DNA of 31,623 bases from Clostridia bacterium (GTDB lineage: Bacteria > Bacillota > Clostridia > Christensenellales > Aristaeellaceae): NCBI GenBank assembly GCA_024404275.1, contig JAKSQG010000002.1:1-31623 (forward strand), written 5' to 3'. The notes beneath the pieces were generated by a model, which made no database searches, had not been told where the DNA came from, and saw nothing but the letters and a program-made list of their open reading frames with translations. Position numbers and translations under genes: made by a program. Below, piece by piece: positions 26,199 to 27,464 of the stretch; position 1 is the first letter of the stretch, and the number at the start of each line of letters is the position of its first letter.

Positions 26199-27464
26199 AT
26201 GGACCGTTACAAGCTGCTGATCCGGGGCGGAAAGCCCCTTATGGGAGAAACAAGCGTTTTCGGAGGGAAAAACACCTCTGTGGCTGTTCTGCCCGCGACC
26301 CTTCTTTGCGATGAACCCTGCGTGGTGGAAAATCTGCCCGATATTGAAGATATACATGTCATGCGCGATATGCTGGAGCTGCTGGGCTGCGGCATCGTTT
26401 ACGAGCCGCAGGAAAGGCGCATGACCATCGATCCCCGCGGTGCTTCCGGTTATACCGTGCCTTTTCAGTATACACAGCGCATGCGCGCCCGCTATTATCT
26501 GTGGGGCGCGCTGCTGGGCCGCTGCGGCCGCTGTGACGTGGGTTATCCCGGCGGCTGCACCATCGGCAACCGTCCCTTTGAACAGCATATCAAGGGCTTC
26601 ATTGCCCTGGGCGCCAAGGTGGAGGACCGCGGCGGCATGGTGTATGCCGACGGCGAAATGATGGGTGCCGAGGTGTATTTTGACCGTATCACTGTGGGCG
26701 GCACCGTCAATGTGATGCTGGCGGCGGCCAAAGCCCGCGGAAATACCACCATCCACAATGCCGCACGTGAGCCGCATATCGTCGATCTGGCGAACTTCTT
26801 GAATTCCATGGGCGCGCATGTGCGCGGCGCCGGTACCGATACCATCCGTATCCGCGGCGTCGAATATCTGCACAGCACCCGCTATTCCGTCATTCCCGAT
26901 CAGATCGAAACGGGCACGCTGATGATCGCCGCCGCGGCAACGCATGGCGATGTGACCATCCGCGGCTGCATTCCCACCCATATGGAAGCGCTGACCGCCA
27001 AACTGCTGGAGATGGGTGTGCAGGTGACCGATACCGACGATACCATCCGTGTGCGCAGTGACAGCCCCCATCGTGCCGTCAATGTCAAAACGCAGGAGTA
27101 TCCCGGTTTCCCCACCGACCTGCAGCAGCCCATGAGCGCCATGCTGACCTGCGCAAAGGGCAAAAGCAAGGTCATCTAGGCCATTTTTGAAAACCGCTTC
27201 AAGCACCTTAACGAAATGACCCACATGGGTGCCGATGTGCAGATCGTGGATCAGACCGCCATCATTGAAGGGGTGTAGGCCCTGTATGGCGCGCCGGTGA
27301 AGGCCACCGATCTTCGTGCGGGCGCCGCGCTGGTGGTGGCGGGCCTGATGGCGGAGGGCACGACCGAGATTTATGAGCCGGGCTATATTGAGCGCGGCTA
27401 CGAACACATTGAGGATAAGCTGCGCGCTTTGGGCGCGTAGATCTGGCGGGAAGAATTGCCGTGA
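26199..27464 (+). CDS. murA: UDP-N-acetylglucosamine 1-carboxyvinyltransferase containing three in-frame TAG codons
   Basis: ORF 26199..27179 continues in the same frame through TAG 27177-27179 and TAG 27276-27278 with conserved MurA sequence ([13 protein letters not shown]..., [41 protein letters not shown]). After TAG 27438-27440 it reads IWREELP and then TGA 27462-27464. The joined length is 421 codons. A GAGGAG RBS lies upstream. Confidence 0.9.
27177..27179 (+). other. In-frame TAG codon read as sense (murA site 1)
   Basis: ...[27 protein letters not shown]... Confidence 0.85.
27276..27278 (+). other. In-frame TAG codon read as sense (murA site 2)
   Basis: ...[31 protein letters not shown]... 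Confidence 0.85.
27438..27440 (+). other. In-frame TAG near the murA C-terminus, probably sense
   Basis: ...[22 protein letters not shown]. The TGA overlaps the GTG of the next ORF (GTGA at 27461-27464). Confidence 0.6.

Follow-up and report, generated by a model that had tools for sequence, protein, structure and literature searches.

To our knowledge, the accepted stop-codon reassignments in bacteria all involve UGA, which is read as Trp or Gly. The literature on bacterial code changes covers UGA-to-Trp, UGA-to-Gly, several changes of Arg codons and, recently, ACA from Thr to Asp and CGG to Ala, and the only sense reading of UAG described in prokaryotes is pyrrolysine (Pyl), including a genome-wide archaeal Pyl code. 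We analysed a stretch of 31,623 nucleotides from an uncultured gut bacterium of the Clostridia (contig JAKSQG010000002.1; the whole stretch is called the window hereafter), in which murA and four other genes carried TAG codons in frame. Comparison with close relatives and with conserved protein columns indicated that UAG is very probably a sense codon for glutamate in the window's species and in its sister species, with UAA and UGA remaining stops.

The described systems closest to this one share some of its properties. In the UAR-to-Glu nuclear codes of peritrich ciliates and of Blastocrithidia nonstop (PMC12153298), UAG is read as Glu, as it would be here. The mechanism in those eukaryotes is a cognate tRNA-Glu with a changed anticodon, GAG and UAG being one-step neighbours, and UAA was reassigned together with UAG in the presence of the eukaryotic release factor eRF1. 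The present organism, in contrast, is a bacterium with separate release factors 1 and 2 (RF1 and RF2), and UAA ended 9 of 24 genes and was never found in frame. In the UAG-to-Gln recoding (code 15) of crAss-like, Lak and other phages and of several protists, UAG alone becomes sense, as here; the recoded phages read UAG with a suppressor tRNA(CUA) and share the gut setting, whereas the residue here is Glu and the codons lie on a cellular chromosome among housekeeping genes. The bacterial UGA codes (UGA-to-Trp in Mycoplasmatales and others, UGA-to-Gly in Absconditabacteria and Gracilibacteria) resemble our case in that a stop is reassigned genome-wide by the logic of codon capture, typically with RF2 loss and a new cognate tRNA. 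They differ in that here the codon is UAG, the release factor at stake RF1 and the residue Glu, in DNA of 60% GC and not in an AT-rich reduced genome, and within a very narrow, apparently young clade. The archaeal UAG-to-Pyl code (Kivenson et al. 2025), as far as it is presented in the gTranslate preprint, likewise gives a prokaryote with UAG as sense genome-wide, and coding density under genetic code table 11 is little affected there, so that the change is easily missed, as it is here; the present case differs from that account in a canonical residue (Glu), in bacteria, and in a TAG that interchanges with GAG. Finally, in engineered RF1-deficient E. coli (genomically recoded organisms, e.g. 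PMC11903333) UAG was freed and assigned through a CUA tRNA, whereas the change described here is natural and essential genes acquired TAG secondarily. The case would be a stop-codon capture of the classical type, which differs from the described bacterial cases in codon, residue and release factor.

Open reading frames (ORFs) in the window were called by treating TAA and TGA as the sole stops, and the frame was chosen by codon-position GC. The window had a GC content of 60% and a composition uniform along its length, and it was a syntenic bacterial contig (plsX-acpP-rnc-smc-ftsY), covered almost in full (31,625 bp). Its gene content was that of an ordinary Firmicute of the Clostridia (leuS, an ATP-binding cassette (ABC) transporter, ftsY, smc, rnc, acpP and plsX), together with a HAD hydrolase, a sugar ABC system, adenine deaminase, murA and a DnaJ-like gene. 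The eight in-frame TAG codons claimed in the initial annotation were all recovered, in five genes (three in murA, two in a methyltransferase gene here called mt4374, and one each in ftsY, smc and the HAD gene); murA, ftsY and smc are the three essential genes among them. No in-frame TAA or TGA was present in the ~9,600 codons of the window. The 24 complete genes ended in TGA (15) or TAA (9) and never in TAG, and Glu was encoded by 358 GAG and 330 GAA codons, so that the eight TAGs amounted to about 1% of Glu codons. The five genes and their TAG codons are as follows.

26199..27464, plus strand: murA (UDP-N-acetylglucosamine 1-carboxyvinyltransferase), 421 codons with three TAGs read through and a TGA stop at 27462-27464
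27177..27179, plus strand: TAG at murA codon 327 (site 1), in an invariant Glu column
27276..27278, plus strand: TAG at murA codon 360 (site 2), in a hypervariable column
27438..27440, plus strand: TAG at murA codon 414 (site 3), followed by seven further homologous codons and then TGA
10596..11522, minus strand: ftsY, signal recognition particle (SRP) receptor, one in-frame TAG (Pfam SRP54, E = 6.9e-76, and SRP54_N)
11151..11153, minus strand: TAG at ftsY codon 124, TAG in the sister species too
11536..15096, minus strand: smc, one in-frame TAG (match to the B. subtilis SMC head in PDB at 6e-79; orthologues in 16 genomes)
14488..14490, minus strand: TAG at smc codon 203, GAG in the sister species
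17221..17880, minus strand: HAD-family hydrolase gene, one in-frame TAG (Pfam HAD_2)
17662..17664, minus strand: TAG at HAD codon 73, TAG in the sister species too
4374..5279, minus strand: mt4374, Spermine_synth-like methyltransferase gene, two in-frame TAGs (Pfam PF01564, a weak match)
5244..5246, minus strand: TAG at mt4374 codon 12, GAG in the sister species
4773..4775, minus strand: TAG at mt4374 codon 169, GAG in the sister species

Under table 11, murA ends at the TAG at 27177-27179. When read through, its product covered positions 2-417 of 417 of the Pfam EPSP_synthase profile (E = 2.8e-88) and aligned end to end with MurA chains in PDB (matches at 1e-118), and 120 MurA homologues (70-86% identity) aligned up to the very C-terminus. 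The sequence after the TAGs nearest to a C-terminus (MurA 414 and codon 385 of an aldo-keto-reductase (AKR) gene of the sister species) was homologous to the C-termini of relatives, and the TAGs at these positions are therefore read through. In public annotations made with table 11, murA was entered as pieces of 270, 359 or 413 residues, according to the first TAG met; ftsY and the HAD gene were deposited as halves, and smc was also fragmentary.

Relatives were collected at several distances. GTDB species representatives were scanned with the C-terminal part of SMC, which gave 16 loci (L001-L016). L001 is the sister species (JAZRWA010000059.1, GCA_045599485.1, 'Clostridia bacterium SGB_3710'), with 91.3% nucleotide identity to the window over 23 kb, 97% identity in the SMC protein and 90% in the mt4374 orthologue. 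L002-L015 are rumen and gut Clostridia metagenome-assembled genomes (MAGs) with SMC identities of 65-70%, and L016 is a Christensenellales MAG with 44%. The window's species, an uncultured gut Clostridia, is represented by GCA_024500545.1, where proteins identical to the LeuRS and the sugar kinase of the window are recorded, and by strains in several public runs: L017 and L026 (SRR27361835), L019 (SRR17543910), L022 and L027 (ERZ27247179), L025 (ERZ27247129) and L028 (SRR14246009), at 98.5% nucleotide identity. L021, L023 and L033 supply the remainder of the 47-kb contig of the sister species. These strain and contig loci were gathered through look-ups of exact proteins and of cluster members, and up to 120 homologues per protein were used for the residue columns. 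Across the ~85 kb of lineage DNA thus available (the two sister species with their strains), 16 distinct in-frame TAG sites were found, in unlinked loci and in conserved, intact genes.

We then determined which residue homologues carry at these sites. TAG stood in an invariant or near-invariant Glu column at four of them. MurA 327 and MurA 271, the latter a TAG in the sister species, were Glu in 120/120 homologues each. The column of FtsY 124 was Glu (GAG or GAA) in 13/13 family relatives within a near-identical context (GKLALRFQ-E-IGRSV). At codon 52 of a chromate-transporter gene (ChrA 52) of the sister species, TAG lay within TIA-E-MTPGP in a column where 112 of 120 homologues had E and 8 had Q, the nearest homologue (90% identical) having E. 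Other columns were less uniform: SMC 203 was E8, D5, G2 and A1 in the family, MurA 414 was D54, N23 and E16, and MurA 360, a site that does not discriminate, was P44, S31, R9, D9, T8, Q6 and E3. The nearest full-length MurA (P0001, 86% identity) had E at all three TAG sites of the window, including MurA 414 within LGAEIWRE. When the log-likelihoods of eight columns were summed, Glu scored -8.9, Asp -37.3 and Gln -41.1.

These columns also bore on alignments that the initial annotation had made with model organisms. MurA site 1 had been placed at the Glu of the ETxFENRF motif, and this was borne out by E. coli (ITETVFENRF) as well as by the invariant column. Site 2 had been aligned with Glu of E. 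coli at a variable position, and E. coli indeed has E there; at site 3 it has N. The SMC site had been assigned to the Glu of VEPL in B. subtilis, where E was seen, in agreement with the GAG of the sister species. The FtsY site had been matched to Gln of E. coli, and Q is found there, yet the relatives within the family all have Glu; E. coli is too distant a comparison to be informative at this site.

The partners of TAG between close relatives were determined by comparing genes codon by codon with the sister species and with strains. We found that TAG occupies Glu positions and acts as a synonym of GAG and GAA between close relatives. At 10 polymorphic sites the partner of TAG was a Glu codon, as listed below.

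mt4374 codon 12: TAG in the window, GAG in L001
mt4374 codon 169: TAG in the window, GAG in L001
mt4374 codon 7: GAA in the window, TAG in L001, the reverse pattern five codons upstream of codon 12
SMC 203: TAG in the window, GAG in L001
SMC 217: GAG in the window, TAG in L001
MurA 271: GAG in the window, TAG in L033
MurA 327: TAG in the window, GAG in L017 and L022, GAA in L033
Caspase-like gene codon 339: TAG in L025, GAA in L023
Caspase-like gene codon 254: GAG in L025, TAG in L027
AKR gene codon 385: TAG in L023, a Glu codon in L025

Only MurA 360 had partners other than Glu (CAG and CCG), and AAG, TGG, TAY, TTG and TCG were never seen as a partner of TAG in the lineage comparisons. The initial annotation had proposed Glu or, failing that, Gln for the UAG-encoded residue; the ten Glu partners and the invariant Glu columns uphold the first, while the second finds its counterpart in the CAG of a single hypervariable site and was not supported. 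TAG was present in both species at four sites, namely FtsY 124, HAD 73, MurA 414 and codon 265 of the caspase-like gene; that of MurA 414 was common to L017, L019, L022 and L033. Taken together, TAG sites were shared by the two species and by at least four other strains or samples.

The caspase-like gene, which encodes a caspase-family protein with a FlgD_ig domain (L025 5798..7336, plus strand; L023 8640..10163, plus strand), is one ORF with one to three TAGs (codons 254, 265 and 339), their number varying by strain. Public records split it into two or three genes. It was a local hotspot of TAG gain.

Several observations weigh against a glutamate meaning of UAG. The evidence for it is comparative throughout, and no tRNA with anticodon CUA was found by ARAGORN and Rfam in the ~85 kb of lineage DNA (the window, L001, L021, L023, L025 and L033). 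Since the relatives hardly use TAG either, the lack of genes ending in TAG says little by itself. The HAD 73 column was mostly Leu in distant homologues (L46, Y21, V15 and E12), a column that is variable and uninformative, all 120 homologues having at most 58% identity. At MurA 360, the partner within the species was CAG (L022), as a glutamine meaning predicts, in a column that is hypervariable; the codon was TAG in L017 and L019 and CCG in the sister species (L033).

Among the other explanations, the one that survives best is that UAG still signals stop and is read through only in part, or that context decides between a stop and a sense meaning. This would fall short of a full reassignment, with Glu still the residue inserted; we consider it unlikely. 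The low share of TAG among Glu codons would suit it, as would the fast turnover of TAG sites between relatives, which could mean that TAG is mildly deleterious. However, partial suppression at each of the three TAGs of murA would leave little full-length MurA, and ftsY and smc carry one TAG each. Moreover, none of the ~40 lineage genes inspected ended at TAG, and four TAG sites have been kept in both species.

Less probable still, at a chance that we would call slim, is that UAG means glutamine (as in code 15) or an ambiguous mixture of Glu and Gln, which could arise if a CUA tRNA derived from tRNA-Gln were charged with Glu and then partly amidated by GatCAB. Where UAG has been reassigned in nature it usually means Gln, the Q of E. 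coli FtsY and the Q in 8 of 120 ChrA homologues agree with it, and the succession CCG-CAG-TAG at MurA 360 is a plausible mutational path. The partner counts nevertheless point the other way: ten polymorphic sites pair TAG with GAG or GAA and one with CAG, although transitions between C and T are as a rule more frequent than transversions between G and T. The two TAG columns with Glu in 120/120 sequences and the one with Glu in 13/13 contained no Gln, and the summed log-likelihood of Gln lay 32 units below that of Glu. A minor fraction of Gln at TAG sites may nonetheless occur alongside glutamate.

That UAG stands for Pyl, as in the archaeal code of that name, or for some other non-standard residue is scarcely credible, even though Pyl is the one known prokaryotic sense reading of UAG and ARAGORN labels every CUA tRNA 'Pyl': TAG alternates freely with GAG and GAA within the species and fills invariant Glu columns, in which a bulky lysine derivative is not expected as a substitute, and neither pyl genes nor methylamine methyltransferases were seen in the small share of the genome that was covered. 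The probability is equally negligible that the in-frame TAGs are sequencing or assembly errors (for instance systematic G-to-T miscalls), pseudogenes or contamination with DNA of another code, as every sequence being metagenome-assembled and the GAG-to-TAG changes all being G-to-T might suggest, because a G-to-T error process or decay of the genes would also have produced TAA, TGA and frameshifts, whereas TAG alone was in frame, with no case of GAA-to-TAA or GGA-to-TGA and no frameshift, identical TAGs recurred across studies and runs in no fewer than six assemblies made independently (GCA_045599485.1, SRR27361835, SRR17543910, ERZ27247179, ERZ27247129 and SRR14246009), the affected genes are essential and otherwise well conserved, and the window is one syntenic bacterial contig of uniform composition.

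The extent and history of a glutamate reassignment were examined across the same relatives. In-frame TAG was absent from smc and ftsY in L002-L016, and the smc of L005 ended with TAG just before the start of ftsY; the reassignment would therefore be derived. Among the sampled genomes it is apparently restricted to the two sister species, and since four TAG sites are found in both, it would predate their split. At three of the polymorphic sites (SMC 203, MurA 271 and MurA 327) more distant homologues had a Glu codon, which is consistent with GAR-to-TAG gains that arose independently once the two species had separated; for the remaining seven, partners exist within the lineage only and the direction of change cannot be assigned. 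TAG codons appear to be still accumulating in the lineage. The positions of TAG differed between the two species at 8 of 11 sites compared, against ~20% for GAG/GAA, and this faster turnover than at synonymous Glu sites suggests either that the gains are recent and independent or that selection acts mildly against TAG.

TAG was scarce well beyond the two species. It ended 1 of 67 conserved genes in relatives. At NNT|AGN junctions, where TAG lies out of frame, the window had none against ~40 expected, with 283 AGN codons present, and the relatives (L002-L016) had 8 against 103 expected. The trinucleotide TAG/CTA was depleted in the window and in the relatives alike. Depletion of TAG was for this reason rejected as a signature specific to the lineage, the relatives being equally depleted. 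Such avoidance at the DNA level throughout the family may have prepared the ground for reassignment, a codon that is nearly unused being what the codon-capture model takes as its point of departure.

The mechanism we propose would start from a tRNA with anticodon CUA that accepts Glu. Its most parsimonious origin would be a duplicated tRNA-Glu (CUC or UUC) whose anticodon was changed, which from CUC takes one change. Non-discriminating glutamyl-tRNA synthetase (GluRS), in organisms that make Gln-tRNA through GatCAB, tolerates variation at anticodon position 36, and enzymes of this type are usual in Firmicutes. A GluRS already tolerant in this way would accept the CUA tRNA, and a tRNA body of the Glu type would protect the attached Glu from amidation to Gln by GatCAB. 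RF1 would be lost or weakened, leaving RF2 to terminate at UAA and UGA. The course of events would be one of codon capture, in which TAG was almost unused at first and GAG-to-TAG (G-to-T) changes were tolerated after the reassignment and accumulated in each species. When ordinary tRNAs misread UAG, the residue put in is usually Gln, Tyr, Lys or Trp and not Glu. A dedicated tRNA is favoured because ordinary misreading rarely gives Glu and because the three TAGs of murA need efficient decoding. We infer a mechanism made up of a CUA tRNA and a change in RF1 with moderate confidence.

The tRNAs seen in lineage DNA included a cluster of eight (Arg-TCT, His, Gln-TTG, Lys-TTT, Leu-TAG, Gly-GCC, Gly-TCC and Lys-CTT). 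The RF1 gene prfA does not lie within these ~85 kb, a stretch too short to bear on whether it has been lost. Metagenomes of the JGI were also scanned with a pattern that combines an anticodon arm of the tRNA-Glu type carrying CUA with a T-loop. The sole match, L020, was rejected, as it lies on an unrelated Firmicute contig of ~50% GC whose genes have no in-frame TAG; the same pattern had no match in IMG/VR. The L020 contig carries thiolase and acyl-CoA dehydrogenase genes and two adjacent tRNA genes (3157..3234 and 3237..3310, both minus strand), an odd tRNA(CUA) lying 2 nt downstream of a tRNA-Gln(CUG). The odd tRNA has U1-A72, a mismatched acceptor stem, a 6-bp anticodon stem and a D-arm like that of tRNA-Glu.

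Further features of the window and of the loci compared were recorded. Two more TAGs within long ORFs lay upstream of the true start codons, one of them (~18170) inside a flavin mononucleotide (FMN) riboswitch (18130..18246, plus strand, 117 bits) and hence non-coding. A bacterial small SRP RNA was located at 17911..18010 (minus strand, 76 bits), and the SRP RNA and the riboswitch both lie upstream of the ABC-transporter operon. The sequence TAGATC, which contains GATC, was present at four of the eight TAGs of the window (5244, 4773, 11151 and 27438), and a purine followed TAG at seven of the eight. Sequence context was dropped as an explanation of the TAG sites, as ATC did not follow the other TAGs of the lineage and seven purines of eight were not clearly above background; what follows the TAGs of the window may reflect chance or a context preference. 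The locus from which P0001 came (L018, JGI Ga0207380_11845290) has other neighbours around murA, with rplQ and a MoaE-like gene upstream, and TAG was absent from its eight genes both as stop and as sense.

The initial annotation had regarded UAG-to-Glu as unprecedented in bacteria, and our reading of the literature agrees: no report of a bacterial UAG-to-Glu code was found in the literature searched, and a 2026 screen of 2.7 million assemblies presents no bacterial TAG-to-Glu case. We think it reasonably probable that this is the first natural bacterial code in which UAG specifies a canonical amino acid and the first stop-to-Glu code outside eukaryotes, caught early, with two sister species, four ancestral TAG sites, a dozen other, independent gains by G-to-T changes in Glu codons and a TAG already almost purged family-wide. 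A practical consequence is that annotation with table 11 cuts short or breaks up essential genes in these MAGs; their estimates of completeness and of pseudogenes are affected as well. A natural amber-suppressor pair that charges Glu would also be of interest for work on genetic-code expansion. If the glutamate assignment is true, it would be a new entry among the natural codes, and the genomes would be expected to encode an amber tRNA that naturally accepts Glu and a GluRS that tolerates A36, and probably to lack RF1. Phages that infect this host would face the altered code and need to tolerate or exploit it. RF1-dependent termination would be dispensable in a gut bacterium of free-living type with 60% GC, and because the case would be young, the order of events, from TAG depletion through the tRNA and RF1 loss to the spread of the codon, would be readable from the genomes of the two sister species.

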